64,000 nucleotides of DNA from an uncultured bacterium (GTDB lineage Bacteria; Krumholzibacteriota; Krumholzibacteriia; G020349025): NCBI GenBank assembly GCA_964567755.1, contig CAZMNW010000020.1, positions 7,401-71,400 of the forward strand, written 5' to 3'. The notes beneath the pieces were generated by a model, which had not been told where the DNA came from, did no database searches, and saw only the letters and a list, made by a program, of their open reading frames with translations. This document shows positions 3,856 through 63,943 of the stretch, piece by piece; the stretch's first letter is position 1, and each line of letters opens with the position of its first letter. The position numbers and the translations under genes were made by a program.

Positions 3856-5127
3856 TCAGACCGCGTCGCGGAGAAGCGGTTGGCTGAGACAATGCGGGCC
3901 GCCGCGGGCGCGGGAGATTTCGTTACTGCCGAGCAGAACACAGGCGCGCTCGCCTTTGTCGATGTCGACGCTCTTGCGTCCATAGAGCAGGTCCTTGGCC
4001 GATACGATCGTATAGCCGGCGCGAGCGAGCTCTGCCGCGGTCGCGATGTTGCGATCGTAGAGGAGAACGACTCCCGGAGCCACCGCGAGCGCGTTGGCGC
4101 CGTCGGTCCATTGCTCGCGTTGTTGCAGCATGGGATCGCTGCCGCCGCAAGGGATCGGCTTCAGGTCGACGCGCCGCCGGCGCAACGCGGAAAATAAATC
4201 GGCGCGCGCCACGGGCACCGGCTCGCGCGCGTGCAGATCGATCTCGAAGATTCGACCTTCGCCCGGATTCCCAGGCTCGACGAGCCCCGGATACACCAGA
4301 CAGGCATCGCGGTCGATGGGCGTCATCACGGTATCGAGATGCATGTAGGCGCGATGCTGCGGCAGTGAGACGATGACCAGCCAGCGCGGCCCGCCGTCGA
4401 GCCGCGCGAGCGCACGCGCCAGCTGCTGCACGCCGGTGCGGTTCGTGCGCTGCGAGGCGCCGACGGCGACGACATCGGCTGAGAGTACGAGCACGTCGCC
4501 GCCTTCGATGTGCGGCCGGTGCGGTCCGAGGTGGATGGAGGCATCGCGGCTCGCGGTGGGATCGAGGAGCCGCGGCACCGCCGAGAGATCGGGATGGAAG
4601 CGGAACACGGCGCTCGCGAGCAGCGATTCGCGCCAGCGTGCCGGTGTCGCCATCGACGCGATCACCACATGTTCGCCGAGGACGATCTGCGGATCGCGTT
4701 GGAAGCACAGGTTGGGCACCGGCGGGATCTCGAAGATCTCGTGCGCGTCGTGGGCGGTGAACGGCGGCTCGCGGCGCAGACCGCCCGTCATCAGGCGCGC
4801 GAGCTCTGCCGGAGTGGCGGCGCGCAAGCGCTCGAGAACGTCCGGTGCCAGCACTTCTTCGAACGGGTCGAGCAGCCAGCGACGCGCTTCCTGACGCTGC
4901 AACGCCTCCACCAGCAGCCTCTGGAACTGAACGACCTCGACGCCCAATGCTTCGAGGACGCGCTGGAAACGCCGGTGTTCCTTGCGCGCTGCATCGCCGA
5001 ACAAGATATCGTCGAAGAGCAACTCCTCCATCATGCTCGGCAACATGTGGTCCACTTCGAGCCCCGGCTCGTGGACGAGGACGCGGCGCAGGCGGCCGAT
5101 CTCCGATGTGACGCGAACCGTTGGCAC
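3856..5127 (-). CDS. arginine deiminase / amidinotransferase-superfamily protein
   Basis: C-terminal 'GGPHCLSQPL' resembles the catalytic-Cys motif of arginine deiminases (GGGxxCMSMP). Length is 423 aa. Confidence 0.7.
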   Translation of the reverse strand: MPTVRVTSEIGRLRRVLVHEPGLEVDHMLPSMMEELLFDDILFGDAARKEHRRFQRVLEALGVEVVQFQRLLVEALQRQEARRWLLDPFEEVLAPDVLERLRAATPAELARLMTGGLRREPPFTAHDAHEIFEIPPVPNLCFQRDPQIVLGEHVVIASMATPARWRESLLASAVFRFHPDLSAVPRLLDPTASRDASIHLGPHRPHIEGGDVLVLSADVVAVGASQRTNRTGVQQLARALARLDGGPRWLVIVSLPQHRAYMHLDTVMTPIDRDACLVYPGLVEPGNPGEGRIFEIDLHAREPVPVARADLFSALRRRRVDLKPIPCGGSDPMLQQREQWTDGANALAVAPGVVLLYDRNIATAAELARAGYTIVSAKDLLYGRKSVDIDKGERACVLLGSNEISRARGGPHCLSQPLLRDAV

Positions 5128-5198
5128 AGGACTCCTCCGCGCTCGTGGGAGAATACCCTGTTTGGCCCGCCGATCCAGGACTGCTATGGTGCGTCTCG

Positions 5199-5663
5199 AT
5201 GCGCCTCGATGCCGTAAGACCGCCCGCCGGCCCGTTCATCGTCTCGGAAGACGTTCCGGTGCGTTTCCGCGACACCGATGCGATGGGTCACGTCAACAAC
5301 GCCGTCTATCTCACCTACCTCGAGGTGGGGCGTCAGGCTTATTGGCAGCGCTTCTCGCGCCAGGGCAGTTACAACGCGGTGCCGTTCGTGCTGGCGCACG
5401 TGTGCATCGATTTCCGCGCCGAGGCGCGCGTCGGTGAAGTGGTGCGCGTGTTCTTGCGCACGACCTGGGTGTCCCGGAGCTCGTTCGGGATGGAATACGA
5501 GCTGCGAGAACGCGACTCGGGAGTGCTGCTCGCGACCGCCGAGACGGTGCAAGTGACCTACGACTACGAGGCCAAGCACTCGATCGCGGTTCCCGATTGG
5601 CTGCGTCAGGAGCTCGAAATGGTCGAGGGGCGAGCATTGCCTTCCCGGCCGCCCTCGGGCTGA
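5199..5663 (+). CDS. acyl-CoA thioesterase (4HBT/YbgC-like hotdog fold)
   Basis: 'VRFRDTDAMGHVNNAVYLTYLE' is a 4HBT thioesterase motif. Start moved to ATG 5199 to avoid overlap with the convergent deiminase gene start. Confidence 0.75.
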   Translation: MRLDAVRPPAGPFIVSEDVPVRFRDTDAMGHVNNAVYLTYLEVGRQAYWQRFSRQGSYNAVPFVLAHVCIDFRAEARVGEVVRVFLRTTWVSRSSFGMEYELRERDSGVLLATAETVQVTYDYEAKHSIAVPDWLRQELEMVEGRALPSRPPSG

Positions 5664-5676
5664 TCGCCGCCGGCGC

Positions 5677-8088
5677 ATGACGATGCCGAAGCCGACGGGA
5701 ACCTCGCCGCACGTCGCAGCATTCCGGCAACGTACACCTCGGGGGTTTCGAGTGCGGTTGCTCGCGCGTTACATAAAATGGCTGCACACGGGTTGGCCGG
5801 CGGGCACGGTGGAGAAGTTGCCCGCAGTCGAGCCCGACGGGTCGACGCGCGTCCCGGGTCTTTATGTCGTCGGCGATCTCACGGGGATTCCGCTGCTCAA
5901 GTTCTCCTCCGACACCGGTGCTCGCGCCGTGCAGACGATCGTGGCCGATCCGGCGTTCCAAACGGCGCGAGCCGAACGCGGGCCCGAGGGACGGACGGTG
6001 CTCGATCTGGTGATCGTCGGCGCGGGCGTGTCCGGGATCGCGGCGGCGCTCGAGGCCAAGCAGCATGGGCTGCGCTTCGAGGTCTGCGAAGCCACCGAAC
6101 CCTTCTCGACCGTCGTCAACTTCCCGAAGGGGAAGCCGATCTACACCTATCCGACGCAGATGACACCCGTGGGAGCGTTGCAGCTGCGTGCCGCGGTCAA
6201 GGAAGACCTGGTGCAGGAGCTGCAAACGTACGCGCAAACCGCAGGCATCACGCCGCGCATGGTGCGCATCGAACGCGTCGTCCGCCACGGCAAGCTGCTC
6301 GAGCTGACTCTGGCCCAGGGCGAGAGCCTGCTCGCACGCCGCGTCATCGTCGCCATCGGACGGTCGGGCAACTTCCGCAAGCTCGGCGTGGCCGGCGAAG
6401 ACCTGCCCAAGGTCGCCAACCGTTTGCATGACCCGATGGATTTCGCCGGACAGAACGTGCTGGTGGTGGGTGGCGGCGACAGCGCCCTCGAAGCGGCGAT
6501 CGCGCTGGCGCTGGCTGGCGCTTCGGTGACGGTGTCGTATCGCGGGGCGGAATTCGCGCGAGCGAAGCCCGAGAACGTCGACAAATTGCACGCGTTGCAG
6601 CGCGATCCCATGGCCGATGTGCAGGTGGAACAGCCGACGTCGGAACGCGTCACCACGTCTGCCGGGCGCTTCCTCGGCGCGCACCGCAAGCCCGGGCACA
6701 TTCGCGTGCTGTTGTCGAGTCAGGTGGAGCGCATCGACGAAACCACCGTGACTCTCGCGCACGCTGGCCGTCCCGAAACGCTGCCGAACGCCGCCGTTTT
6801 CACCATGATCGGACGCGAGGCACCGCTCGAGTTCTTCCGCCGTTCGGGCGTGCCGATCCGAGGCGAGTGGACGCGCCGCAGCAAGCTCGCGCTCGCGGGA
6901 TTTCTGCTCTTCTGCACTGCACTCTACGATTGGAAATCGGGCGGCTACCTCGATGCATTGGGGCGGAAGCTCGGAGGCTTCCCCTACGATCTCGGCCAAT
7001 GGCTGCACGCCGCGCCGCATTCGTTTCTCGGCGTCACCCTCGCCTCGGCACAGGGACCGTCATTCTGGTACACGCTCGTCTATTCGACGCTCATCGTGGT
7101 CTTCGGCGTGCGGCGGATCCGGCGCCGGCGCACGCCGTACGTGCGCGTGCAGACGCTCACCCTCATGTCGATCCAGGTGTTGCCGTTGTTCTTGTTGCCG
7201 GAGATCCTGTTGCCGTGGCTCGGGTACCACGGCTGGCTGCCCGCCTGGCTCGCCGATCCGCTGTTTCCGGTCGTCGACTACGGCCACGGCCGCGAATACT
7301 GGCGTGCCTACGGCTTCGTGCTGGCCTGGCCGCTCATGATCTACAACTTTTTCACCGACTCGCCGCTTTGGGGATGGCTCGTCCTCGGCGGCCTGCAGAC
7401 GTTCGTGCTCATCCCGTTTCTCGTCTACCGTTGGGGCAAGGGCGCTTACTGCGGCTGGATCTGCTCGTGCGGGGCGCTGGCGGAAACGCTCGGCGACACC
7501 CAGCGCCACAAGATGCCGCACGGACCGCGCTGGAATCGCCTCAACATGATCGGGCAAGCGATCCTGGCGCTCGCGTTCATATTGCTCTTGCTCCGCATCG
7601 CGTGGTGGTTGTCGCCGCAGACCGGCTGGCTGCGCGCCATCAATTTGGCCGCCAAGGACGGCAGTGGCCTTCCCGGTGCGCTGCACTTGCTGAGCTACAA
7701 GTGGCTCGTCGACGTCTTTTTGGCCGGCGTGTTGGGATACGGCCTGTACTTCTGGTTCAGCGGCCGGGCCTGGTGCCGTTTCGCCTGTCCGCTCGCGGCC
7801 CTCATGCACCTCTACGCGCGGTTTTCGCGTTTCCGCATCCTGGCCGACAAGAAGAAGTGCATCTCGTGCAACGTCTGCACTTCGGTGTGTCATCAGGGGA
7901 TCGACGTCATGAACTTCGCCAACAAGGGGATGCCCATGGCGGACCCGGAATGCGTGCGCTGCAGCGCTTGCGTGCAGAGCTGCCCGACCGGCGTCTTGCG
8001 TTTTGGTCAGGTCGATCCGAAGACGGGCCAGGTACTGGGCTACGATCGGCTCGCGGCTTCCCCGGTCCAGATGGCCGAAGAACACTGA
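5677..8088 (+). CDS. fusion protein: FAD/NAD(P)-binding oxidoreductase domain plus NapH/MauN-like integral-membrane polyferredoxin with a 2x[4Fe-4S] dicluster
   Basis: GxGxxG motifs 'VIVGAGVSGIAAALEA' and 'VLVVGGGDSALEAA'. Also 'GLYVVGD'. Membrane half carries 'CGWICSCGALAE' and 'CRFACPLAALMHL' (Cx3CP type), then 'CISCNVCTSVCHQG...CVRCSACVQSCP'. Confidence 0.75.
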   Translation: MTMPKPTGTSPHVAAFRQRTPRGFRVRLLARYIKWLHTGWPAGTVEKLPAVEPDGSTRVPGLYVVGDLTGIPLLKFSSDTGARAVQTIVADPAFQTARAERGPEGRTVLDLVIVGAGVSGIAAALEAKQHGLRFEVCEATEPFSTVVNFPKGKPIYTYPTQMTPVGALQLRAAVKEDLVQELQTYAQTAGITPRMVRIERVVRHGKLLELTLAQGESLLARRVIVAIGRSGNFRKLGVAGEDLPKVANRLHDPMDFAGQNVLVVGGGDSALEAAIALALAGASVTVSYRGAEFARAKPENVDKLHALQRDPMADVQVEQPTSERVTTSAGRFLGAHRKPGHIRVLLSSQVERIDETTVTLAHAGRPETLPNAAVFTMIGREAPLEFFRRSGVPIRGEWTRRSKLALAGFLLFCTALYDWKSGGYLDALGRKLGGFPYDLGQWLHAAPHSFLGVTLASAQGPSFWYTLVYSTLIVVFGVRRIRRRRTPYVRVQTLTLMSIQVLPLFLLPEILLPWLGYHGWLPAWLADPLFPVVDYGHGREYWRAYGFVLAWPLMIYNFFTDSPLWGWLVLGGLQTFVLIPFLVYRWGKGAYCGWICSCGALAETLGDTQRHKMPHGPRWNRLNMIGQAILALAFILLLLRIAWWLSPQTGWLRAINLAAKDGSGLPGALHLLSYKWLVDVFLAGVLGYGLYFWFSGRAWCRFACPLAALMHLYARFSRFRILADKKKCISCNVCTSVCHQGIDVMNFANKGMPMADPECVRCSACVQSCPTGVLRFGQVDPKTGQVLGYDRLAASPVQMAEEH

Positions 8089-8142
8089 TCGGGTACACTC
8101 TCGCGAGTGCGAACTCACCCTTGTGCCAGCGACGGAGGATCG

Positions 8143-8925
8143 ATGTCGGCGTTGAAGGATCAGCTGGTCTTCGTCACCGGTGCGAGCAGCGGCATCGGCC
8201 GCGCGTGCGCGCGTGCGTTCGCGCGCGAGGGGGCACGGTTGCTGCTCGCGGCGCGTCGGATCGAACGCCTGCAGGCGCTCGCTGCCGAACTGGAGACAGC
8301 ACAGGGGTGTGCGGCGCACTGTCTACGGCTCGACGTGCGTGATGCCAGCGCAGTGGACAAGGCGCTCGACGGGCTGCCGGTGGCATGGCGCGATATCGAC
8401 ATTCTTGTCAACAACGCGGGTCTCTCGCGTGGCCTTGCTCCCATTCAGGCAGGCGATCGAGCGGACTGGGACGAGATGATCGACACCAACGTCAAAGGTC
8501 TCTTGTACGTGACCCGCGCCGTTCTGCCCGGGATGCTCGCGCGCGAACGCGGCTACGTGATCAATGTCGGCTCGATCGCGGGACGAGAGGTCTACGCGAA
8601 CGGCAGCGTCTACTGCGCCAGCAAGTTCGCAGTCCGCGCTCTGACACAGGGGTTGCGGCTGGACTTGCACGGCACGCCGATCCGCGTCAGTACCGTGGAT
8701 CCGGGGCTCGTCGAAACCGAATTCAGTATGGTGCGATTCCGTGGCGATGCCGAGCGCGCGGCGAAGATCTATGCCGGCACGCGCCCCCTGACAGCGGAGG
8801 ACGTCGCTGATGCGGTGCTGTTTTGCGCCACGCGGCCGCCGCACGCCACAGTGGCCGAGCTGGTTCTCTTGGCCTCGGACCAAGCCACGGCGACGACGGT
8901 CCTGCGGCGGCCCACTCAGATGTAG
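8143..8925 (+). CDS. short-chain dehydrogenase/reductase (SDR)
   Basis: 'VFVTGASSGIGRA' (TGxxxGxG), 'NNAG', and 'YCASKFAV' (YxxxK). Confidence 0.85.
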   Translation: MSALKDQLVFVTGASSGIGRACARAFAREGARLLLAARRIERLQALAAELETAQGCAAHCLRLDVRDASAVDKALDGLPVAWRDIDILVNNAGLSRGLAPIQAGDRADWDEMIDTNVKGLLYVTRAVLPGMLARERGYVINVGSIAGREVYANGSVYCASKFAVRALTQGLRLDLHGTPIRVSTVDPGLVETEFSMVRFRGDAERAAKIYAGTRPLTAEDVADAVLFCATRPPHATVAELVLLASDQATATTVLRRPTQM

Positions 8926-9428
8926 CGTTCACGCAGCACGCCCACATGATGCAGCTCGTGTCCAGCGATGATGTACAGAATCGCACGCACGCTGAACTCG
9001 TACCCGGATGCTGTGCCATGGCGCATCGCAATCTCCGCATCGAAGCTTTCGAACAGCGCCAGACTCGCCGTGCGCACGGCGGCGAACTCGGCAAGAATGG
9101 CGCGTAGCGGCCGGCGATCGAAGTTGGCGTTGGCGGCGTAGTCGTTCTGCTCCATGGACGGGAGCTTTGCGGGGTCGTTGCGGGCGAAGGCGAGAGCGCG
9201 GTAGGCAAAAACGCGCTCGGCGTCGATCACGTGACCGAGCACGAGCTTGATGCTCCATTTGTCCGGGGCATAGCGAAAGCGCGCCTTTTCCTCGCCAATC
9301 GATTCGAGCAGTTGCAGCGTTTGTCGGTTCTGTTGCGCCAGGATCTCCAGGATGTTGCCCACGGGGACCTTGTCGATGTAGAGGGCGTAATAGGGCGCGT
9401 GCTCTGTGGGCTCTGGACGCGTGAGCAT
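8916..9428 (-). CDS. DinB family (DinB_2/DUF664) protein
   Basis: Start at 'MLTRPEP' with AGGAG upstream. C-terminal 'IAGHELHHVGVL' His motif. It overlaps the SDR gene's 3' end by 10 bp, convergently. Confidence 0.7.
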   Translation of the reverse strand: MLTRPEPTEHAPYYALYIDKVPVGNILEILAQQNRQTLQLLESIGEEKARFRYAPDKWSIKLVLGHVIDAERVFAYRALAFARNDPAKLPSMEQNDYAANANFDRRPLRAILAEFAAVRTASLALFESFDAEIAMRHGTASGYEFSVRAILYIIAGHELHHVGVLRERYI

Positions 9429-9639
9429 GTGGAACTCCTCTTCTGGCGCGGGTCGTCGTGGCGGCGAACGGTGCTTCAGTCGGGCAAGAGAAGGAAGATG
9501 CGGGTCCGGAGTGGCCTCATGCAACCGGCTCGGCATTGCCGCGGCTGCGTCCTAGGAGACCCCGAACCCCGCGAATCCAGGGCTGCCACGTTCTATGAGG
9601 TTCGGCCTGGATTTCGACCGTGGCCAGATGCGCCCCATT

Positions 9640-9791
9640 GACGGGGTATAAGTATAAGCAATTCATAATAAATAAGTTAGATCAGCAAAAACGGCCGTCC
9701 GTTCACGATCGAATGTGGAAAGAGTACAGGAGAGTAGACATTCCCTATGGAAAATTGTACTAATAGGTAGAGTATTCAACTGGGACGTCAC
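9640..9791. promoter_or_regulatory. AT-rich divergent promoter/operator region upstream of the Rrf2-suf operon
   Basis: A sharp local GC drop ('tataagtataagcaattcataataaataagttag'). Direct repeat 'GTAC-N6-GTAGA' appears twice about 30 bp apart, immediately 5' of the Rrf2 start. Confidence 0.4.
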
Positions 9792-10349
9792 ATGAAACTG
9801 TCCGCGCAAGAGGAGTACGGCCTGCGTTGCATCCTGAGCCTGGCAAGGCTGGAAGCAGAGCCAGTGGTGGAAGGCCGTATCTCGGCCACGATTGGCCAGA
9901 TCGCCGAGCACGAAGGCCTGTCCACGGAGTACGCGGCAAAGCTCATGGGGATTCTGACGCGGGCAGGTCTCGTGGAGAGCGTCCGCGGGCGCAACGGTGG
10001 CTATCGGCTCGGGCGGGCGCCGGAAGCGATCTGCGTTTCGGAGGTTCTCGCCGCGCTCGGCGGCAAGCTGTACCGGCCGGCGGAGACGTGCGATCGCTTC
10101 AGCGGCGATCACAGGTTCTGCGTGCACTCGAACACGTGCTCCATCCGCTCGCTGTGGTCGGGATTGCAACGCATGATCGATTACGTGCTGTCGCGCACCA
10201 CGCTGCATGATTTGGTGGCCACCAATGAAAGCAACATGGCCGAGTGGATGCGTGCACAGTTCGAGACGTTGGCGGAGCTGGTCACGCGTGAATCGTCAGG
10301 GTCGGGTGCAGGCCGTGTGACCTTGGTCACGCCGGGAACTGGCCGCTAG
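9792..10349 (+). CDS. Rrf2-family transcriptional regulator (IscR/SufR-like, probable Fe-S-sensing)
   Basis: N-terminal wHTH 'MKLSAQEEYGLRCILSLAR'. A three-Cys cluster 'CDRFSGDHRFCVHSNTC'. It heads the suf operon. Confidence 0.85.
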   Translation: MKLSAQEEYGLRCILSLARLEAEPVVEGRISATIGQIAEHEGLSTEYAAKLMGILTRAGLVESVRGRNGGYRLGRAPEAICVSEVLAALGGKLYRPAETCDRFSGDHRFCVHSNTCSIRSLWSGLQRMIDYVLSRTTLHDLVATNESNMAEWMRAQFETLAELVTRESSGSGAGRVTLVTPGTGR

Positions 10350-10382
10350 GCGAGCGCGCCAGGCGCGAAACGGAGAAACAGG

Positions 10383-11822
10383 ATGTCCACCGAATCCATC
10401 CGTCAGATGACCGAGAGCGACTACAAGTACGGTTTCACCACCGACATCGAGTCCGACTCGGCTCCGCCTGGTCTCGACGAGGACATCATCCGCCTGATCT
10501 CGACCAAGAAGGGCGAGCCCGAGTTCATGCTCGCGTGGCGGCTCAAGGCCTACCAGCACTGGAAGACACTGTCGGAGCCGCGTTGGGCGAACGTGCAATA
10601 TCCGCCCATCGACTACCAAAAGATCGTCTACTACGCGGCGCCGAAGCAAAAGCCGCAGCTCGCGAGCCTGGACGAGCTGGATCCGGAGCTGTTGGAGACC
10701 TTTCGCAAGTTGGGCATTTCGCTCGACGAACAGAAACGCCTGTCCGGGGTGGCTGTGGATGCGGTGTTCGACAGCGTCTCGGTGGCCACGACCTACAAGA
10801 AGCGGCTCGGGGAGTTGGGTATTCTCTTCTGTTCGTTTTCCGAGGCGGTGCGCGAGCACCCCGGTCTGGTGCGCAAGTACTTGGGGTCGGTGGTCCCGCA
10901 CACGGACAACTTTTTTGCGGCGCTCAACTCGGCCGTGTTCAGCGACGGTTCGTTCGTCTACATCCCCAAGGGCGTGCGCTGTCCGATGGAGCTGTCCACC
11001 TACTTCCGCATCAACGCCGCCGACACCGGGCAGTTCGAGCGCACCCTCATCATCGCCGACGAGGGCAGCTACGTCAGCTACCTCGAAGGCTGCACGGCAC
11101 CCATGCGCGACACCAATCAGCTGCATGCGGCAGTGGTGGAGCTCGTCGCCCTCGACGATGCCGAAATCAAGTATTCCACCGTGCAGAACTGGTATCCGGG
11201 CGACAAGGACGGCAAGGGCGGCATCTACAACTTTGTCACCAAGCGCGGTGCGTGCAGGGGGCGCAATTCGAAGATCTCGTGGACCCAGGTGGAAACCGGT
11301 TCCGCGATCACGTGGAAATACCCGAGCTGCATCCTGCAGGGCGACAACTCCGTGGGCGCGTTCTACTCGGTGGCCGTCACCAACAATTACCAGCAAGCCG
11401 ACACCGGCACCAAGATGATCCACATCGGCAAGAACACACGCAGCACCATCATCTCGAAGGGGATCTCGGCAGGGCATGGGCAGAACAGTTATCGCGGCCT
11501 GGTCAAAATCCTCAAGGGGGCGGAGAACGCGCGCAACTATTCGCAGTGCGACTCCATGCTGATGGGGAGCGAGTGCGGCGCCCATACTTTCCCGTACATC
11601 GAGGTGAAGAACCCCACGGCGCGGTTGGAGCACGAGGCCTCGACGTCCAAGATCGGCGAGGACCAGATCTACTACTGCAAGCAGCGTGGCCTCTCCGAGG
11701 AGGACGCGGTGAACCTGATCGTCAACGGCTTCTGCAAGGAAGTCTTCCGCGAGCTGCCGATGGAGTTCGCGGTCGAAGCACAGAAGCTGCTGAGCGTGAG
11801 CTTGGAGAACGCGGTCGGCTGA
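10383..11822 (+). CDS. sufB: Fe-S cluster assembly protein SufB
   Basis: 479 aa with a typical SufB N-terminus '[14 protein letters not shown]' and conserved SufB core. Confidence 0.95.
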
Positions 11823-11883
11823 CGCCCGCCACAGCTTGGCCCCCCGGCACGGATCGTCGCGCGGCCGACGAGGAGGAAACGGC

Positions 11884-12657
11884 ATGAAACAGCCACTGCT
11901 GCAGGTGCGTGGTCTCCACGTCGAGGCCGGCGGCAACCCAATTCTGACCGGCATCGATCTCGAGCTCTTCCCCGGCGAAGTGCACGCCATCATGGGTCCG
12001 AACGGGTCGGGGAAGAGCACGCTGGCGCACGTGCTCGCCGGTCGCGATGGCTACACGGTCACGTCGGGCGACGTGCTCTATGACGGCAAGCCGCTTTTGG
12101 ATTTGGAACCGGAAATTCGCGCGCGCGAGGGAGTGTTCCTGGCCTTTCAGTATCCGGTCGAGATTCCAGGCGTCAACAACACCTATTTCCTCAAAGCGGC
12201 GCTGAATGCGGTGCGCAAGCACCGCGCGCAATCCGAGCTGGATGCCATGGACTTCCTGGCACTGGTGCGCGAGAAAATGAAGCTGCTCGAGATGGACGAT
12301 TCGCTTCTCGGCCGGCCGGTGAACGAGGGGTTCTCTGGCGGCGAAAAGAAGCGCAACGAGATCCTGCAGATGGCGTTGCTCGAGCCGCGCCTGGCCATTC
12401 TCGATGAGACCGATTCGGGCTTGGACATTGACGCTCTGCGGGTCGTGGCGCGCGGAGTCGAGACGATGCGAAACGCGGAGCGCACGATTCTAGTGGTGAC
12501 GCACTACCAGCGCCTGCTCGATTACATCGTTCCCGATTTCGTCCATGTGCTTTCCCGCGGGCGTATCGCGAAGTCGGGAAGCAAGGATCTGGCGTTGCAG
12601 CTCGAGGAAAAAGGTTACGCGTGGATCGACGCCGAAGCCGCCGAGCGCACGCGCTGA
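11884..12657 (+). CDS. sufC: Fe-S cluster assembly ATPase SufC
   Basis: Walker A 'GPNGSGKST' and signature 'FSGGEKKRNE'. Start at MKQ with GAGGAGG upstream. Confidence 0.95.
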   Translation: MKQPLLQVRGLHVEAGGNPILTGIDLELFPGEVHAIMGPNGSGKSTLAHVLAGRDGYTVTSGDVLYDGKPLLDLEPEIRAREGVFLAFQYPVEIPGVNNTYFLKAALNAVRKHRAQSELDAMDFLALVREKMKLLEMDDSLLGRPVNEGFSGGEKKRNEILQMALLEPRLAILDETDSGLDIDALRVVARGVETMRNAERTILVVTHYQRLLDYIVPDFVHVLSRGRIAKSGSKDLALQLEEKGYAWIDAEAAERTR

Positions 12658-25517: not shown

Positions 25518-26301
25518 CGAGATCGTGAAGCTGTTGGTGTCGGAGCAAGAGCTCACGACGCGGGTCGCGGAACTGCAGCGGCAACTGGAGTGGTTCAAGC
25601 GCCAGATGTTTGGCTCCAAGTCGGAACGCCGGATCCTGTCGCCGGATGGCCGGCAGCTCGGGCTGGGCGAACAGCTCGGCGCGACGACACCGGCCGCGGC
25701 AGTCACGGACGAGACGGTTCGCAGCTACGTCCGTCGGCGCCGGAAGGATCCTCTCGAGGGCGCTTCGGACGACAGCGGTCTGCGCTTCGATCCATCGGTT
25801 CCAGTGCGCGAGATCCAGATCCCAAACCCCGAGATCGCGGATCTGCCTCCAGAGAGCTACACCGTCATCGGCAAGAAGGAGACTTGTCGGCTGGCCCAGG
25901 AGCCGGGCGCGTACGTGGTGCTTCGATACGTGCGCGAGGTGGTGAAGCTCAAGAAGGAAGGAACCTTCTCGTGTCCGCCGGCGCCGCCCTCGGTGTTGGA
26001 GAAGAGTTTCGCGGACGTGAGCTTGCTGGTGGGAATCCTCATCGACAAGTTCCGCTTCTATTTGCCGCTTTACCGCCAGCATCAGCGCTTGGCGGCGAGC
26101 GGGATCCACCTGGGCCGGTCGACTCTGACGCAATGGGTGCACGCGGTGATCGCGCTGTTGGAGCCGATCTACATGGCACAGTGGGAATCGGTGCTGTCGA
26201 GCTCGTTGCTGATCATGGACGAGACGCCGCATCGAGACCCATCCGGCACGGGACGTCCATTTGCTCACGCCGCGATTGTGGAAGCAGCACTTCGCCGCTG
26301 A
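25477..26301 (+). pseudogene. tnpC: IS66 transposase TnpC, N-terminal 274 aa only
   Basis: Coiled-coil leader 'ELQRQLEWFKRQMFGSKSER' and 'RFYLPLYRQHQRLAASGIHLGRSTLTQWV' match IS66 TnpC. The catalytic DDE part is missing. Confidence 0.7.
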
Positions 26302-26583
26302 CCCCTTGCGATCCGATCTCGATCGCATCCGTCAACGCTCCGCTGCCTGACCGCTTTTTGCCGGCGTTTCCCCCAGAATCGCAAAGGTTCCTCGAAATCG
26401 CGCCGCCGCGAAAGACTCTGTTCTTCTACCGCTTACCGATCGTGAATCTGGGCGTCGCACGTCGCACGACCCCAGTCGACGCATGACCGTCTTGGCGAAT
26501 CTCAGGTTGCGAGCGATGAATCGATGAATGGGGACCCAAGGATAGCGCCAGGAGGACGCGAAGGTCGATGCGCCCCTGCGCCA

Positions 26584-28368
26584 TCAGATCGCGCGATAAT
26601 GCCTCGGACCGTAGTGCAGGATGCGGTAGGGCTGGATCACATAGACATCGTCGCCGGCTCGTCCCCAAACCCGACTTCCACCTAGCGTCTCACTCAGGAA
26701 CGTCCACCGTGAACCGTCGTAGTGAAGGGACACGTGAGCGCCGACCGCATAGATGTCTCTGGAGGACTCTCCCCAGATGCCAGTGAGAGTGTCGGTGGAG
26801 GGACTCGTCATGGGCGTCCATTTGCCGTTCTCGAAATGCAGAATGGTTCCTTGAGCTCCAACGGCAACGAGGCATTGCGAATCTCCCCAGATCGCTTGAA
26901 GGCTCTCGGTCGTGTTGCTCACCATTAACTGCCATGACTTTCCGTCGTAATGGAGAATTGTACCGTCCTCGCCAACTGTATACACTTCGGAACCTGAGCG
27001 TCCCCACACGTCGTTCAAACCCACCGTAGTGTTGCTTTCCATAGTCACGAGGGTAGTCCCGTCGAAATGTGCAATCGCTCCATCCCAGCCAACAAAGAAA
27101 ATGTCACTAGAGTCACCACCCCACACGTGCGCTAGCCCTTCCGGGAAATGGGCCACTCGCAATCTCGTTCCATCAAGAAGCAGGGCAACAAGACCATAAT
27201 CCCCGATCGCGACCAAGGTATTGCCGGGGCCCGACCAAAGGTCCGAGATTGGTGCGCCATCGTCCATATAGATGTTGCGCCATGATGACCCATCAAAACG
27301 CAAGAGGCCTATGTAGTCACCTCCGACATAGATGTCTTGGTCGTTTCCGGAGATTGCCGTCAGATCCCGGTTGAAAGGCAGCAAATACTCACTCCGTTCC
27401 TGATTCCATGTCGCACCATCGAAGTGGAGAATAGTGGGAGGAACCCGTTCGTCTTCTCCACTGCCGACAACGAACACCTCGCCGTCCGGGCTCTCCCATA
27501 GATCTCGGATAGCAAGTGAGTACATTCCGTGACTAAGCCGCCAACCCTGCCCATCGTAATGATAGATGACATTCCCACCGGCGACGTAAACGTCATTGCT
27601 TGTAGAGCCCATGACTGTATTGAAGATAGGCCCGTAAGGCATTCTCGTGAGAGTCCACGTCCGGCCATCGTAGTGCAGAACGGTACCGTTCGGTCCAACG
27701 GCATACACGTCGTCACGAGAAGATGCCCAGATGTCATTTAGAGATTCGCTTGTCGTGAGAATCTCCGTCCACGAAGTGCCATCGTAGTACAGGACCGAAT
27801 GTTGTAGGGCCGCGAAAAGCTCACCAGTCGGAAGCCCCGAGATAGCGTAAATGTCCTCGGTGGTTCCGCTCTCTATGGGTGTCCATGATGAGCCGTCATA
27901 GCGCTGGATCATCCCGCCACCACCAGCCGCAAGCACATTGTCGACGGAAGTGCCCCAAAGATCATGAATGGGAGCAGTGGAATTGATACTCATGGGGGAA
28001 ACGACGGATCCATCAAAATGATACATGTAGTATTCGTAGACCCGGCTCCCACCGACGATGCTGCGTGAATAGCCGACGACAAAAATGTCCCGCGGTGACA
28101 CGCACAGTAGGGCGCTCCAATGAGAGAGTGGAGCATGGAACGGGATCGATACAGTCCATAGGGTGCCGTCATAATGCAAGAGGGTTCCGGCATGGCCAAG
28201 AGCATAGACATTGGTGCTCGAGCAACCGGACACGCCGGCGAGATCCTCACATGTCGCAAGAACGCTCCAGGATGAGTCCGGAACTGGCACTGGTGCCATT
28301 GGAGACATGGCGCATGAGCTTACCATTATCGTCAGGGAAAGAAGGGTGTATGGGGGAGCGAACATTCT
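26584..28368 (-). CDS. beta-propeller lipoprotein with about 14 BNR/Ycf48-like repeats
   Basis: Lipobox 'IMVSSC'. A roughly 42-aa unit 'WGxSxxDVYAVGxxGTILHYDGxxW' repeats about 14 times. Locally about 52-57% GC. RBS GAGGAA. Confidence 0.75.
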   Translation of the reverse strand, partial: RMFAPPYTLLSLTIMVSSCAMSPMAPVPVPDSSWSVLATCEDLAGVSGCSSTNVYALGHAGTLLHYDGTLWTVSIPFHAPLSHWSALLCVSPRDIFVVGYSRSIVGGSRVYEYYMYHFDGSVVSPMSINSTAPIHDLWGTSVDNVLAAGGGGMIQRYDGSSWTPIESGTTEDIYAISGLPTGELFAALQHSVLYYDGTSWTEILTTSESLNDIWASSRDDVYAVGPNGTVLHYDGRTWTLTRMPYGPIFNTVMGSTSNDVYVAGGNVIYHYDGQGWRLSHGMYSLAIRDLWESPDGEVFVVGSGEDERVPPTILHFDGATWNQERSEYLLPFNRDLTAISGNDQDIYVGGDYIGLLRFDGSSWRNIYMDDGAPISDLWSGPGNTLVAIGDYGLVALLLDGTRLRVAHFPEGLAHVWGGDSSDIFFVGWDGAIAHFDGTTLVTMESNTTVGLNDVWGRSGSEVYTVGEDGTILHYDGKSWQLMVSNTTESLQAIWGDSQCLVAVGAQGTILHFENGKWTPMTSPSTDTLTGIWGESSRDIYAVGAHVSLHYDGSRWTFLSETLGGSRVWGRAGDDVYVIQPYRILHYGPRHYRAI

Positions 28369-28558
28369 CATGACTTGATTCCTCAATCCAAGAGGGGGTG
28401 AAGGGGAGGGATGCTTTTTCCTTCGGGGTCTCGACAGGTGAAGAGCGCCGTATTCATTATGCACTCCCGATGCTGTCCAGCAAGAACCGGTGCAACCCAG
28501 GCGCCCAGGGGGGAGAAGAAATGTGCAACTTGCCCCACGGGTAACGAAAGGAGGGAAG

Positions 28559-29037
28559 TCATTGGAATCGCGTTACCCTATGATCTGGAATCTTTCTGAA
28601 CCTTTTCTCTCTCCGTCGCAAGGCTCGGTCCCGCTCTCGCGGGACCGGCTCGTATCGTGTCGTCATCCGAGGCTGCCTTATCAGTCGGCAGGCACGCCTC
28701 TCCGAGTAACCCTTCTTCTCCTCCAACCACCGCACCGCCCGTCGCCGACTGGACGGGCTTACCAGTTTTTTCGACTCAGCTCCTTGAGAGCGTCGATGTC
28801 CATCGCCTGGTCGGCCACGATCTTCTTCAGCCGGCTGTTCTCGCGCTCGAGCTCCTTGCGCCGACGCGCCTCGTCCATGGTCAAAGAACCGTACTGCTTG
28901 CGCCAGCGGTAGTACGTCTGCTCGTTCACCCCAAGGCGTTTGCAAACCTGCGCGACGCTGGCTCCCTCCGCCACCGCCTTGTCTGCCTCACGCAGCTTGC
29001 TGACCACCTGCGGCGCTGTGTGTCGCTTGCGTTTCAT
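28559..29037 (-). mobile_element. IS3-family remnant (orfA intact, orfB truncated after about 65 aa)
   Basis: orfA and a -1-frame orfB overlap at the slippery heptamer A AAA AAC (revcomp of 28774-28780 region). The orfB fragment is 'RRAVRWLEEKKGYSERRACRLIRQPRMTTRYEP'. Confidence 0.75.
28759..29037 (-). CDS. IS3-family transposase OrfA (HTH)
   Basis: 'KRKRHTAPQVVSKLREADKAVAEGASVAQVCKRLGVNEQTYYRWRKQYG' matches the IS3/IS911 OrfA family. Confidence 0.8.
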   Translation of the reverse strand: MKRKRHTAPQVVSKLREADKAVAEGASVAQVCKRLGVNEQTYYRWRKQYGSLTMDEARRRKELERENSRLKKIVADQAMDIDALKELSRKNW

Positions 29038-29401
29038 CGAGAATCCTCCTGCCCGTCCGGGCTGCTAAGACTCTCATAACACTTGGATCAGATTTCGGGG
29101 AGCACATCACCTCGACCTGCCGCTCAGTGGGCTTGACTCAGCTCCGGGGAGCTGATGGACCTCTCAGTCGATCTCTACACCCAAACCCATTGGAAGGTTG
29201 GTGTCCAACCCATGTTGGCAGAGAGGGCGCCCCGGGAAAGAAGGTCCAGAGAAACGCCATCAGAATGGTTGTTTTCATTGGACCCGTTCAGTGGGTTGAC
29301 ATGGAGGTCCTGGTGCGAAAATGATTTGACCTGCCGCCGCAACTGCCGCACCCTCGGTTGTATCTACGCTTCGACGGTTGCCGCAAGAATGGGGGACAGA
29401 G

Positions 29402-30799
29402 ATGAAAAGCCTGACTGGCCTAGTGTTGTTGCTGGCGCTAGTGGGGGCGTTGGGTTGGTCATGTAGTAAGGAGAGCCTACCGCCGGTAGCAGTAGAGGTA
29501 TCAGATGGTCCATCAAAGGGCGATCCCCCTGAAATGGACTACGTTGACCCACCGGAGTGCGACCCGGATTGTGGGACGAATCAGTACTGGGTATGGGTAG
29601 ATAGTGCAATTGTGCAGCAAGCAGATACGAGCGGTGCTGAATGGGATTCTCTGCGCATCTTCGCTAAGGACTCCTTCAGCAGCAGCAGCACCCACCCTAG
29701 ACACGCGACACTCTGGAACAAAGATAGTGCGGCCGGAGCTTTGGCAATGGCAAAGGCCTTGGTCTCCATCCGCATGAGCCGGACGGGTGAAAGCCAAAAC
29801 TACCACGCGCAAGTGGTTGGGGCACTCGACCACCTAATGGCAGATTCACTGAATGGCCACGATTTGGACTGGGAGGATGAACAACTTTCATTGGCACGTA
29901 ACCTCCCCGCTTGGATCATCGCAGCAGACTACCTATTCGCTGCAGTTGGACCCAATCGCAGGGACGACTTCCGCGACCTCATAAGATCCCTAACATCAAA
30001 CGCGCTCTCAGATGACGAAACCGGCGATAGGGATGGGCGCTCACTCAAGGCTGACGTGCGCTATCGTGCCAACAATCGTTCTGCTTGGAGCATAGCAGCG
30101 TTGGCCTGTGCCGGGTCATATATCGGTGAGGGCTACGATGGTGGGCGGTTGGCGCTGGCAGCGAAGTGCTACAAAGGTTACGTCGGTGATCTCACTGGAT
30201 CATCGGCTGTGTATGTGTACAGGGATAGCGCTGGGGGCCAGAACGGGCTCACCTACACCGCGTGGGATTCTCTATACAGCGGCATGGCAAACAACTTCGC
30301 CCCAATAGCTATCCGGAACACAGCGACATTCCATTACGACGGCTGTACCGATGAGTTGTACACGCGCGACGTAAAGGGAATGATGACACAGGACATGAAC
30401 GAAGACGGAGAGAAGCCAACACAGCAGACGAATTGCTACTACGACGCCGGTAATAAGGCGCCGACGTACATCAAGAGCGCAATGGGCGCAGTTGCGATTG
30501 CGGCGTTTGTGTTGGGCAAGACCCCAGGTCACAGCTACCTGGTAATCTTCCAGCATGGTTATGGTGGTTCGAGCGGGGAAGGGTTACTAGCTGCAGCGGA
30601 GTTCTGGACGGAAGAGGAGGCCGCTGAGAATCTTGGTTCAACGCACCTTTGGGAGTTTGCCGCACACGAGAAGAGCTCATGGGTACCGTTCCTGGTGAAC
30701 GGGCTCACCAACGTGAATGAGATAACAGAGCCGTCGCAAGAGGGTAAAGCAGGGCTTCGTTACCTCGCCGGAACGAAGTGGCTTAAGAGCTATTTCTGA
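29402..30799 (+). CDS. lipoprotein, alginate-lyase/heparinase-like (polysaccharide lyase superfamily) candidate
   Basis: Lipobox 'LGWSC'. 'RANNRSAWSIAALACAG' resembles the AlgL 'NNHSYW(A)AW' motif. About 55% GC, lower than the background. Confidence 0.55.
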   Translation: MKSLTGLVLLLALVGALGWSCSKESLPPVAVEVSDGPSKGDPPEMDYVDPPECDPDCGTNQYWVWVDSAIVQQADTSGAEWDSLRIFAKDSFSSSSTHPRHATLWNKDSAAGALAMAKALVSIRMSRTGESQNYHAQVVGALDHLMADSLNGHDLDWEDEQLSLARNLPAWIIAADYLFAAVGPNRRDDFRDLIRSLTSNALSDDETGDRDGRSLKADVRYRANNRSAWSIAALACAGSYIGEGYDGGRLALAAKCYKGYVGDLTGSSAVYVYRDSAGGQNGLTYTAWDSLYSGMANNFAPIAIRNTATFHYDGCTDELYTRDVKGMMTQDMNEDGEKPTQQTNCYYDAGNKAPTYIKSAMGAVAIAAFVLGKTPGHSYLVIFQHGYGGSSGEGLLAAAEFWTEEEAAENLGSTHLWEFAAHEKSSWVPFLVNGLTNVNEITEPSQEGKAGLRYLAGTKWLKSYF

Positions 30800-37251: not shown

Positions 37252-37815
37252 CTTCGGCCCTCCTGCGACGCTGGACGGTGGACTCTCGCATTCGTGGACT
37301 CGACGAGGGTAGCTAATTTCACCCGCGCGCCGCAACGTGCACCGACAGGCCATCCCGTGTCGTGAATCGCTGTAAGCGGAGGACAGGAGAGATGAAAGCG
37401 GCCGCGTGTGTTGCTGCTCGGCTGCGGCCTGTGTCGGTCAACGCTGTCTCCTGACCAGAATCGTGGCCGGTCAGCCAGCGAACCTCGAGTCCGGTGAGCG
37501 TCTTCCCCACGACGGGGCTTTTCGCTCCGAGCTCGCGATGCGATGCCTATCCTCTGAGTTCCGGACGATTCTCCTTCTCTCCGTGGTCGATCCTCGACCA
37601 GTGGTCGCTCCGAAAAGCTACGAGTCGTGCGTTTGGAAAGGTGTGCCGGCAGTTTGCTGGGGCAAATGTCCCAACGGGCATGCGCCTTGCCGCGCGAAAG
37701 TGACAGGAGATGTCAGGCGGCCGTGAGTCTGGCCGTACATCCCGCCGCGCGCGTCCTCAAGAGTCCGAGAATCTGCGCGCTGCGGGGACCGCGCTCGAAA
37801 CTGCCGGAGAGTCGC

Positions 37816-60125: not shown

Positions 60126-60350
60126 GCTCGAGTCAGTTGCGATGATTTGGTGTAAAAGCATACCCGAGACGCCGGAAATCTCCGTACTGCCGGCGTTATG
60201 TTCCACCGCGGGGTCCAGGGCCACCGCGGTTGGTTGGGCGCTCCAATGTATTGTTGATGATTATACGGGTTTCCACGCGCCAACAACAGGAGAGCGTCGC
60301 GCTGGCGCGTGCCGCATCGAGTGTTGGGCCGTTTGACGCAGTCGCTCGGG

Positions 60351-60383
60351 GAAAAAAAATGGAGCGTGCAGTTGCACGCCCCA
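60351..60383 (-). terminator. rho-independent terminator downstream of the 60415-63612 gene
   Basis: On the minus strand a GC stem 'GGGGCGTGCAACTGCACGCTCC' is followed by a U8 tract (plus-strand 'gaaaaaaaatggagcgtgcagttgcacgcccc'). Confidence 0.6.
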
Positions 60384-60414
60384 TTTCGCCGTCGCGTGTG
60401 CGAAGATTTCGCGT

Positions 60415-63400: not shown

Positions 63401-63612
63401 AAATCGAAGCCCCAATTGGCGATCCACACCGTGTCCTGCAGAGCTTTTTGCGGCGCCGGCTCGGTGCCTTCCGAGTCACCGACGATGTCCACGTATGGAG
63501 CCGGGTCAGCGATCTCGTGGCGCAGTCCCGCAGGACGTGCGTAAACGCCGCTCGCGAACAACGAGACGATGCCGACACAGGCGCAGGAGATACGCAGGTA
63601 TCTCTGCAACAT
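60415..63612 (-). CDS. secreted Cys-rich 1065-aa protein with a canonical T9SS C-terminal sorting domain
   Basis: Signal peptide 'ISCACVGIVSLFASGVYA'. C-terminus 'LHQNVPNPFNPTTTIRFDL...VKLRIYDVAGRLVRTLL...VTWDGLDD...SGVYFYRLEAG' matches the Por_Secre_tail/TIGR04183 pattern. Confidence 0.8.
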   Translation of the reverse strand: MLQRYLRISCACVGIVSLFASGVYARPAGLRHEIADPAPYVDIVGDSEGTEPAPQKALQDTVWIANWGFDFGFPCTDTGWFRADNHILNDGSVYWNVTSAHTGNGGITGNAAALGYTSNNCCAEPTGYDNDWYQGIRITYAGSGFLSFDYMVDSEDGFDFLQVESDSACASFDRVDFDTDPSSNAATFRTVEFSASGYDVAGAVASLPVPSFGAGTHCMYIAFFADGGYSPCDGLQATNIGAAIVIDNIALVGVTTPVNENFEGTLHPNLSLLNIQDSKPFGEWARIFQHITDNDVCSENKTCAWLWTDDVTPTIANDPSMAFAPDGYVVRNWLDDAIISPWVSLASTPTATGTVLRFRRFPGNFFSTSRIVQNWSVRARSIVDSQTCISGWGHSSQWNSLSFFGWLTLTFDMTAEFDPTATHVQVRHRTSDWQWIVGVPPPVTFTPGPGPYIDDTRIGRRILSGPTISEGIDARSQAQDAFPTEIHTGVTAGSGEHFRPSTNRFGSTAFSQGSELGINESSPNLITGDSVYVEVVDARGAGGITGVQWYGAIVAGPHAGKAPPPWSVANGFFAVTADSVRNSNGATLAGFWFVDLDDTYFRGGDVLHYFWFAQDGLGGVSSDPAGLSALPASVQAADLSTGGMLEVSFLPAINWDPAYLQRITNDPNGDLDPTAGEIAASTQKNCMLYVQMTNTRRRGGLVNRTSFMYTLDRLGYTGHYDVYDHQGLGNTNNQLAGRATTQQAQGYNLIAYDVGNSGPTGWLMPDGSDLDLQKVDQAGWFRSWLAQATLSPAGFATLWVIGSNALQEKPSNALYASNMGSVLNGSTQTADAYPKVRGDLAYTFRQNGTATCARTFTGDEYRLDGGCPVSRDYDALGVTGSARATHSYRDPRTNQAVNAAAIVMNSNAAESWNTILQSHPWFDFSQNPSLPPSPTSPQTVLMSKILGCVLPIACQQAPSVTGVPDNDALAVPRQTALHQNVPNPFNPTTTIRFDLAATGQVKLRIYDVAGRLVRTLLDAPRPAGAAQSVTWDGLDDVGERASSGVYFYRLEAGTQSFTRKMVVMK

Positions 63613-63943
63613 ATTGAACCCCCCGAGACGTGAGGCGATGGGTGAAATAGCATTCTCTGGCAGGGGCGAAACCCTCCAGCCAACCCGACGAAAGCGGTGA
63701 CGACATGACTCGACCCGGGCATGGCCGAACGGCGGGGACGGATTCCGGGCGCTATGTCAGACTTGGCCTCGTAATACTACCAAGGCCGGTCTAGGAGGGT
63801 CAAGGAAACCGCCTGGAATGGGAGGCTGGGGCCCAGGCCTTGCCGGGAGGGTCGAGCCAGGCCTATAGTCGGCTCAGGAACCTGATAGGAATCGATCCAA
63901 GGTTCTGGCGGCGCCGTTCCACCCGAAACCGGAGGACCCGAAG

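Follow-up and report, generated by a model that had tools for sequence, protein, structure and literature searches.

Organization of the Locus

The stretch of DNA analyzed here (the window; 64,000 nucleotides, positions 7,401 to 71,400 of contig CAZMNW010000020.1 in assembly GCA_964567755.1) comes from an uncultured bacterium of the Krumholzibacteriota. Near one end it carries three consecutive open reading frames (ORFs) on one strand, encoding a hotdog-fold thioesterase, a protein that joins a flavoprotein to a membrane-bound polyferredoxin (the fusion protein), and a short-chain dehydrogenase/reductase (SDR) (Table 1). An earlier, sequence-only reading had described the central protein as a soluble pyridine-nucleotide-disulfide-oxidoreductase-like domain followed by a six-transmembrane (TM) module of the NapH type and a 2x[4Fe-4S] domain. 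All three ORFs exist, and the domain composition was borne out by profile searches of Pfam and NCBIfam. The central gene is accordingly predicted to encode a single membrane-integral protein with a flavin adenine dinucleotide (FAD)/NAD(P)H domain, six TM helices, and two [4Fe-4S] motifs.

The flavodomain is recognized by Pyr_redox_3 (residues 112-389, E = 1.3e-26, profile positions 1-276 of 305) and Pyr_redox_2 (E = 1e-20); these, FAD_binding_2, DAO, and other matching families all begin at residue 110-112. Two Fer4_5 stretches follow, together with a match to the NapH/MauN family TIGR02163 (residues 549-776, E = 2e-15), and the dicluster domain is recognized by Fer4_21, Fer4_10, and Fer4_7 (residues 721-776). 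No curated family in Pfam or NCBIfam spans the whole protein. Residue invariance, wherever mentioned below, was judged over an alignment of 46 homologs, and structural statements refer to an AlphaFold2 (AF2) model with a predicted local distance difference test (pLDDT) score of 80 and a predicted template modeling score of 0.77.

Table 1. Features of the three-gene locus (nucleotide positions within the window; residues counted from the first ATG of the fusion gene)
Feature	Position	Strand	Basis or remark
Hotdog-fold thioesterase, YbgC/FadM-like, 154 aa	5199..5663	+	Pfam 4HBT_2; lineage-local neighbor
Flavoprotein-polyferredoxin fusion protein, 803 aa from first ATG	5677..8088	+	ORF and domain matches
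Permuted FAD-domain element, residues 40-100 (beta-hairpin, strand 62-66, GD, helix 74-90)	5794..5976	+	Profile A2 and AF2 model
GLYVVGD, residues 61-67, core of the T-x4-h-y-h-h-G-D FAD (ribitol) contact motif (T57...G66-D67)	5857..5877	+	
VIVGAGVSG, residues 112-120, first GxGxxG dinucleotide-binding motif (FAD, ADP moiety)	6010..6036	+	
NAD(P)H-binding beta-alpha-beta (VVGGGDSALEAA ... S287-Y-R289, R295, K297)	6454..6585	+	Pfam Pyr_redox, residues 260-303
Six-TM domain (TM 400-420, 461-484, 487-517, 565-586, 624-645, 674-693)	6874..7824	+	AF2 helices; last four NapH-like
First membrane-face Cys motif, C592-GWI-C596-S-C598 (Cx3CxC), cytoplasmic loop	7450..7470	+	Fer4_5, residues 575-607
Second membrane-face Cys motif, C700-RFA-C704-P705 (Cx3CP), cytoplasmic side	7774..7791	+	Second Fer4_5 stretch
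Cytoplasmic 2x[4Fe-4S] domain (C728-x2-C-x2-C-x3-C738; C759-x2-C-x2-C-x3-C769-P)	7837..8004	+	Pfam, residues 721-776
SDR, 272 aa from GTG	8107..8925	+	Pfam adh_short; lineage-local neighbor

A Circularly Permuted Flavodomain

Flavoproteins with two dinucleotide-binding domains (tDBDF) canonically begin with the N-terminal part of the FAD domain, continue with the NAD(P)H domain, and end with the C-terminal part of the FAD domain, which carries the GD motif as the last motif. In the fusion protein GLYVVGD instead lies 45 residues upstream of VIVGAGVSG, as the sequence-only reading had observed. Read from the sequence, T57-RVPG-LYVV-G66-D67 fits T-x4-h-y-h-h-G-D, the classical definition of this FAD motif in the flavoprotein literature, residue for residue. 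G61, G66, D67, G70, P72-K75, and A82 are invariant, as are G115, G117, and G120 of the first GxGxxG, and the GD element is retained in full-length family members of 31-40% identity.

A profile of the N-terminal ~75 residues of the 46 diverse homologs (A2), searched against all PDB sequences, matches the canonical GD-motif region of solved flavoproteins (E = 1.6e-6 to 1e-3) over a segment of the form "vD...T-x-vpGiYAiGD-x-G-P-L...A...G", and it finds the GD motif in 60 or more solved tDBDF chains. The top match is lipoamide dehydrogenase (1bhy, residues 298-344 of 482, E = 1.6e-6); others include glutathione and trypanothione reductases (E ~1e-4), a thioredoxin reductase (TrxR) (7jyp, residues 296-339 of 343, E = 1.5e-4), and a TrxR-type ferredoxin:NADP+ reductase (FNR) (5ygq, residues 270-294 of 342). 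All of these place the segment in the C-terminal part of the chain, with the GD motif after the NAD(P)H domain.

The rest of the flavodomain lacks what the N-terminus supplies. Pyr_redox_3 finds no match after the NAD(P)H domain for its C-terminal ~30 profile positions, the part in which the GD motif is usually located; the flavodomain ends in ...FTMIGREAPLEFFRRSGVPIRGEW398, and a helix starts at residue 400 in the AF2 model. A construct de-permuted in silico (residues 105-398 followed by 38-104) is colinear across the artificial junction with Bdr of Bacillus cereus (7a76, chain residues 214-284), and it aligns to the TrxR of Mycobacterium tuberculosis (2a87) through the GD motif, reaching "lpgvfaagdl". 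In the native order the TrxR-like GD segment appears only as a separate, out-of-order match (2zbw residues 246-292 against query residues 28-72). GLYVVGD aligns to "pgvyacGD" of 2zbw and "pgvfaaGD" of 2a87. The fusion protein thus has the FAD GxGxxG, the second, NAD(P)H-binding beta-alpha-beta, and the T-x4-h-y-h-h-G-D motif of a tDBDF enzyme, but not their canonical linear order, and colinearity is restored only in the de-permuted construct. In the AF2 model, DSSP assigns a strand to residues 62-66 and a helix to residues 74-90 (block pLDDT 80-96; 64-96 over the whole element).

These comparisons identify GLYVVGD at the N-terminus as the third of the canonical FAD motifs. Because the N-terminal profile matches GD motifs that always follow the NAD(P)H domain in solved enzymes, the predicted rearrangement is a true circular permutation, in which the last beta-strand, the GD motif, and the helix of the FAD domain have moved to the N-terminus. 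The sequence-only reading had left a choice between circular permutation and an unusual N-terminal extension; the A2 matches, the truncated Pyr_redox_3 match, and the de-permuted alignment favor the former, and an unrelated extension finds no support. A conventional motif order, with GLYVVGD having nothing to do with FAD, is contradicted by the A2 matches. A full-text literature search found no paper describing a circularly permuted tDBDF flavoprotein; if this holds, the family offers a natural example of an ancient cofactor-binding fold rewired with the break exactly where the chain must enter the membrane.

NAD(P)H Site and Absence of Redox-Active Thiols

The second dinucleotide motif, G265-GGDSA (GxGxxA/G), aligns with the NADPH domain of Bdr/YpdA, and S287-Y-R289 (SYR), R295, and K297 are invariant (46/46). 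The residues that follow the second GxGxxA appear to resemble the 2'-phosphate-binding residues of NADPH-dependent relatives. By both sequence (E ~1e-20) and fold (Foldseek E = 3e-16) the closest solved relatives are Bdr/YpdA; low-Mr TrxRs, AhpF, and TrxR-type FNRs come next in both kinds of search.

The thiols on which such disulfide reductases depend are absent. There is no invariant Cys in residues 1-400; the residue aligned with Cys14 of Bdr is S119 (Ser in 39, Ala in 5, and Gly in 2 of the 46 homologs), and the position of the TrxR CATC (CxxC) is occupied by an invariant N248-R-L-H-D-P253. Scores against the curated families are correspondingly far below their cut-offs: 116 bits versus 340 for TIGR04018 (YpdA/Bdr), whose active Cys beside GxGxxG (GGGPCG) is also missing, and 63 versus 343 for TIGR01292 (thioredoxin-disulfide reductase), with no redox-active CxxC. 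A disulfide reductase of the TrxR/Bdr type was therefore rejected.

Because it has a low-Mr TrxR-type fold without redox-active Cys, the flavodomain looks like a TrxR-type FNR and is predicted to pass single electrons from NAD(P)H/FAD to the iron-sulfur protein fused to it in cis. The TrxR fold and the lack of CxxC agree with that class; the C-terminal subdomain that stacks on the flavin there has no counterpart in the fusion protein. An insertion in the NAD(P)H domain (residues 308-345, DPMADV-x-VE-x-P-x-SERVTT...) is strongly conserved and has no counterpart in known relatives.

Membrane Region and Iron-Sulfur Motifs

The sequence-only reading had assigned two Cx3CP motifs to the membrane region. 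The second stands; the first lacks the proline and has an additional invariant Cys, giving Cx3CxC. All 13 Cys, five in the membrane-face motifs and eight in the dicluster, are invariant, and so is P705. Lys plus Arg residues number 6 (the RRIRRRR stretch), 5, and 13 in the predicted cytoplasmic loops and 2 in each predicted periplasmic loop. Hydropathy, this positive-inside count, and the AF2 helices indicate a topology of six TM helices with both termini inside, which would put the FAD, the two [4Fe-4S] motifs, and the two membrane-face Cys motifs on the cytoplasmic side. Cytoplasmic placement of the Cys motifs and clusters is established for NapH.

A search of PDB sequences matched the dicluster domains of hydrogenase, MvhB, and NuoI-type subunits; only such generic 2x[4Fe-4S] domains were found, and no solved homolog of the membrane part. 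The protein scores well below the cut-offs for NapH/MauN (57 bits versus 213 for TIGR02163; 42.5 versus 234 for PRK09477) and for NosR (31 bits versus 1000 for NF046105). FMN_bind is not matched in Pfam, the N-terminus being a cytoplasmic FAD/NAD(P)H domain. A literature search found no description of a cytoplasmic NAD(P)H/FAD head on NapH-like proteins.

Size and Distribution of the Family

A word-index search returned more than 4,133 homologs (E < 1e-5). For the best 120 of these, query coverage is 93-100% (96-97% in most) and identity 60-91%; their source labels include Krumholzibacteria, Latescibacterota, Planctomycetota, Bacteroidota, and Desulfobacterota. An exhaustive search of 50%-identity representatives gave 552 clusters at E < 1e-30, including full-length proteins of 600-820 aa at 31-40% identity. 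In species-representative genomes, at least 599 stretches matched the search patterns and at least 585 were confirmed as encoding a relative; 80 loci from this collection, all of other species, were kept as the gene-context sample (individual loci are cited by their L numbers). These add Verrucomicrobiota, Acidobacteriota, Gemmatimonadota, Ignavibacteriales, Myxococcales, Eisenbacteria, and Eremiobacterota. The family occurs in at least 10 phyla, and identity is still ~60% between phyla such as Planctomycetota, Verrucomicrobiota, Acidobacteriota, Gemmatimonadota, Bacteroidota, and Thermodesulfobacteriota.

The best named relatives are at 73-76% identity, which points to a probable Krumholzibacteria-like source of the window. 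Homologs are called "NAD(P)-binding domain-containing protein" or, in JGI annotations, "thioredoxin reductase/ferredoxin". No paper on the family was found in full-text literature, including the DUF547, DUF3179, and TIGR04282 contexts described below. Very large and conserved yet nameless, the family is probably an overlooked and important part of membrane redox metabolism in poorly studied environmental lineages.

Homologs, and the gene calls made for them, begin near residue 26 of the 803-aa ORF, equivalent to a GTG at 5752 with GGGGG ~8 nt upstream, and this start would give a protein of 778 aa. Residues 1-23 are unconserved and poorly modeled (pLDDT <50), and the conserved region, which takes in the GD element, begins at about residue 28. 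For these reasons the gap to the thioesterase gene is probably 88 nt; the 14 bp of the sequence-only reading (13 nt by our count) holds only for the longest-ORF start, ATG 5677.

The Thioesterase and SDR Genes

Both neighbors are assigned at the level of broad families. The thioesterase passes the Pfam 4HBT_2 cut-off (77.7 bits; cut-off 25.5) and falls below that of TIGR00051 (55.6 versus 68.7), so the subfamily level is not reached. The SDR, which probably starts at ATG 8143 (260 aa), passes adh_short (193.5 bits; cut-off 26.6) and not the YdfG equivalog of the 3-hydroxy acid dehydrogenase type (261 versus 411).

The window's thioesterase, SDR, ADI, DoxX, DinB, Rrf2, and SufB were used as tblastn queries against the 80 loci, and no thioesterase or SDR homolog was found within ~6 kb of the fusion gene at any of them (0/80). 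The closest relatives, examined by exact-protein look-ups, delimit how far the arrangement extends. Those at 91% and 79% identity keep the order ADI-DoxX-archease-RtcB / thioesterase-fusion gene-SDR-DinB. In the relative at 77% identity the thioesterase and fusion genes are separated by three others, unrelated to them (for a redoxin, a CCP_MauG protein, and a kinase), and at 73% identity (L001) DinB directly follows the fusion gene and the SDR is missing. An SDR downstream of the fusion gene occurs only in L081-L083. Kept at 79-91% identity, broken at 77% and 73%, and missing from the 80 loci, the trio is local synteny within one lineage, and a conserved operon of the three genes was rejected.

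Two other features of this neighborhood were recorded. A gene for an Rrf2-family regulator followed by SufB and SufC (an iron-sulfur assembly operon; 9792-12657) lies ~1.7 kb downstream of the fusion gene, in an order kept in L081 and L083; its adjacency to an Fe-S-rich protein is probably coincidental. In the 79%-identity relative (L082, 64-3009) the RtcB RNA ligase has 981 aa and contains an intein (PF14890); the RtcB of L081 has 484 aa and no intein match.

Recurrent Neighbors in Other Lineages

Clustering of neighboring ORFs in the 80 loci, followed by hidden Markov model (HMM) searches, identified other recurrent neighbors. DUF547 proteins are encoded at 13 of the 80, mostly directly upstream on the same strand (Thermodesulfobacteriota, Bacteroidota, Planctomycetota, and Verrucomicrobiota); these have signal peptides and an invariant CX4CP. 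DUF3179 lies directly upstream at ~11-13 of the 80 (Latescibacterota and Gemmatimonadota), and at L085 it ends 13 nt before the fusion gene. An AglJ-like family 2 glycosyltransferase (GT2) lies directly downstream at 8/80. The radical-SAM (S-adenosylmethionine) protein ArsS (TIGR04167) is found at 8/80 loci and at L084, in Acidobacteriota, Eremiobacterota, Latescibacterota, Ignavibacteriales, Phycisphaerae, and Bacteroidota. At two loci (L019, Bacteroidota; L017, Phycisphaerae) the fusion gene is inside a full cluster of ArsS, TIGR04282, the AhpD-like TIGR04169, GT2, a family C glycosyltransferase (GT-C; PMT_2 or GT87), and DUF547. At least one of DUF547, DUF3179, GT2, and ArsS is present at 29 of the 80 loci, or 19 of the 47 that extend 3 kb or more in both directions. 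None of the four occurs in the 64-kb window.

In the opposite direction, 80 metagenomic ArsS loci were scanned (41 of them flanked by 5 kb or more), and the fusion gene was near only one; TIGR04282 was near 10, GT2 near 7, and DUF547 near 6. This weakens a specific link to ArsS, and a reductase dedicated to ArsS (~9/80 loci in the forward direction, 1/80 in reverse) was downgraded. The ArsS loci with a DUF547 neighbor are L096, L097, L102, L107, L125, and L147, and DUF547 appears to be an unrecognized member of the "arsenosugar-type" neighborhood.

DUF3179 is a listed UxxC/T selenoprotein family (PMC9312934). Beside the fusion gene in L084 (8814-9506, minus strand) and L008 (5087-5632, minus strand), its reading frame has an in-frame stop near profile position 64, the site of the U/CxxC/T motif; this is probably a selenocysteine codon, not the mark of a pseudogene.

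Gene contexts were uninformative for the distant subfamily (P0164, P0129), for the cultured Fontivita pretiosa, and for P0040. P0164 itself (712 aa, 36% identity) is encoded in a tight three-gene unit with gaps of ~10 nt (L087, 6810-10592; L088, 5251-9033), flanked by proteins of 393 and 146 aa that have no Pfam match.

Proposed Function and Alternatives

We favor, with moderate confidence, the view that the product of the fusion gene is an NAD(P)H-dependent oxidoreductase, self-contained and integral to the membrane, that belongs to a large uncharacterized family; the thioesterase and SDR genes beside it in the window are lineage-local neighbors. NAD(P)H would reduce the FAD, and the FAD would reduce the fused cytoplasmic 2x[4Fe-4S] domain one electron at a time. 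From there electrons may pass to the site formed by the five invariant Cys (Cx3CxC and Cx3CP) at the cytoplasmic membrane face, which could hold a third cluster. The preference for NAD(P)H and the direction of electron flow are inferred. For NapH-like proteins a role as modules of membrane electron transfer, with a putative site for quinone, has been proposed (PMC8238504), and the last step would likewise deliver electrons to a membrane quinone or else to a partner protein.

As a result of the permutation, the flavodomain ends at about residue 398, and its new C-terminal residue, W398, is only one or two positions away from TM1. A rigid attachment of the flavin to the membrane and Fe-S module would follow from this placement, and we propose that the rearrangement serves this end.

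The sequence-only reading had allowed that the fusion might be two genes joined by a frameshift. That the long ORF is a frameshift or assembly join, with GLYVVGD a chance motif in an unrelated extension, could draw only on the unconserved and poorly modeled first 23 residues; thousands of independent full-length homologs from many sources and phyla exclude such a join, the conserved region includes the invariant GD element, and the profile matches to canonical GD motifs are significant, which leaves this explanation with a negligible probability. A membrane-tethered disulfide reductase of the TrxR or YpdA/Bdr kind would accord with the best sequence and fold matches and with the JGI name, but it is most improbable given the family scores and the residues that occupy both thiol positions. 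The earlier proposal that thioesterase, fusion gene, and SDR form an operon for a membrane redox module acting on an acyl or lipid substrate has in its favor a common strand, short gaps (13-88 nt and 18-54 nt), the absence of a terminator-like site between the genes in an otherwise uninformative promoter/terminator scan of 4900-9700, and the shared order in the relatives at 91% and 79% identity. It is nonetheless highly unlikely: the search for homologous clusters was negative at all 80 loci, only close relatives keep the trio, the 77% and 73% relatives have it broken by insertion and loss, and both neighbors belong to generic housekeeping-type families below equivalog cut-offs.

A more specific role is harder to set aside. 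The fusion protein could be the electron input of a particular envelope or biosynthetic system, serving either exported Cys/Sec proteins (DUF547 with CX4CP; DUF3179 with U/CxxC/T) or an ArsS glycoconjugate pathway of the "arsenosugar type" (ArsS, TIGR04282, TIGR04169, a polyprenyl-phosphate GT2, and a GT-C enzyme). The recurrent neighbors are mostly adjacent and on the same strand in several phyla, two loci embed the gene in a complete ArsS cluster, one DUF3179 gene ends 13 nt away, the DUF547 neighbors have signal peptides and an invariant CX4CP, and DUF3179 is a listed selenoprotein family. Radical-SAM enzymes take their reductant from an FNR-like module plus a ferredoxin domain, which is what the fusion protein combines. 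Against this, 51 of the 80 loci and the window itself lack any such neighbor, the reverse ArsS scan gave a single case, and no cofactor or Cys is placed to send electrons to the periplasm; taken together, we regard the two forms of this explanation as unlikely, though credible. Some of the same observations count against the favored view of a self-contained oxidoreductase. The presence of exported DUF547 or DUF3179 proteins, GT2, or ArsS at ~36% of loci hints at a more specific role. The periplasmic loop of residues 518-564 (...LFP-x-V-x-YGHGREYWRAYG-x-x-LAWPL..YN.FT) is very strongly conserved and without counterpart in known relatives, and a simple quinone reductase acting at the cytoplasmic face does not explain it. 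The fusion protein also has no conserved TM His pairs and no periplasmic Cys, so any delivery of electrons to the periplasm would have to go through quinone.

A broader proposal, tentative and on present evidence improbable, is that these proteins constitute a novel class of membrane reductase that is powered by NAD(P)H and made of one polypeptide. They would represent the missing cytoplasmic input head of NapH/NosR-type modules, with the permutation enabling the weld of flavodomain to TM1, and would feed a so far unrecognized envelope reducing pathway that involves DUF547, DUF3179, and in some lineages the ArsS cluster. The electron source and purpose of the cytoplasmic Fe-S clusters in NapH/NosR-type proteins have long been unclear, and an NAD(P)H/FAD head in cis provides a testable model for electron entry.

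Other Features of the Window

Positions 26000-30000 have a G+C content of ~0.567, compared with ~0.65 in the rest of the window, and may be a foreign island; ORFs of this low-G+C region (26584-28464, minus strand, 626 aa; 29378-30799, plus strand, 473 aa) have no Pfam match. Two giant ORFs on the minus strand (50346-63756; ~3,300 and 1,113 aa) probably encode very large secreted or surface proteins, and the 1,113-aa ORF ends in FlgD_ig and a type IX secretion system (T9SS) Por_Secre_tail sorting domain. Apparent DUF3179 matches in the window by tblastn or HMM (60418-63756, 50346-60260, and 37558-42117) were rejected. The first shares only the FlgD_ig/T9SS tail in Pfam and the last has no Pfam match; the false HMM matches arise because this tail is common to some DUF3179 proteins.

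Comparison with Known Systems

What is new here is the fusion of a TrxR-type flavoprotein with a NapH-like polyferredoxin, both of known kinds, a combination of interest for flavoenzyme evolution and for membrane bioenergetics. With Bdr/YpdA (7a7b, 7a76) and the low-Mr TrxRs the fusion protein shares the two-dinucleotide-binding fold, the FAD GxGxxG, the NADPH GxGxxA followed by YR(G), xIGxxP, and the GD motif. It differs from them in that the GD strand and helix are N-terminal instead of following the NADPH domain, in lacking Cys14 (Bdr) or CxxC (TrxR), in the ~38-residue insertion, and in its fusion to a membrane and Fe-S module. The TrxR-type ferredoxin/flavodoxin:NADP+ reductases (2zbw, 3ab1, 5ygq, 6gar, 3lzw) have the same fold without a redox disulfide and let NADP(H) exchange electrons with an Fe-S or flavin protein. 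These are soluble homodimers of canonical order with a C-terminal subdomain on the flavin, whereas the fusion protein is permuted and the subdomain is replaced by the run into TM1.

NapH, MauN, NosR, and PceC (Fer4_5; TIGR02163) share with the fusion protein an arrangement in which TM helices each lead into a Cys motif on the cytoplasmic side and the C-terminus forms a cytoplasmic 2x[4Fe-4S] domain. The fusion protein differs from these in its first motif (Cx3CxC, not Cx3CP), in two additional N-terminal TM helices (six versus four), in the absence of the periplasmic FMN-binding domain typical of NosR and PceC, and in having no nap, nos, or rdh gene context. The cupric reductase CcoG/FixG (Fer4_5 and Fer4_18) is also a membrane protein with cytoplasmic [4Fe-4S] clusters, and a weak Fer4_18 match is found here (E = 0.0065); the fusion protein lacks the periplasmic FixG_C domain, and nothing indicates copper. 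CcoG/FixG reportedly acts as a reductase whose electron donor is not known, as Marckmann et al. are said to have found in 2019. The type II NADH dehydrogenase (NDH-2) is a functional analog only: it too is a tDBDF flavoprotein made of one polypeptide and delivers electrons from NAD(P)H to membrane quinone, but it is monotopic, has no Fe-S clusters, keeps its motifs in the canonical order, and reduces quinone at the flavin itself.

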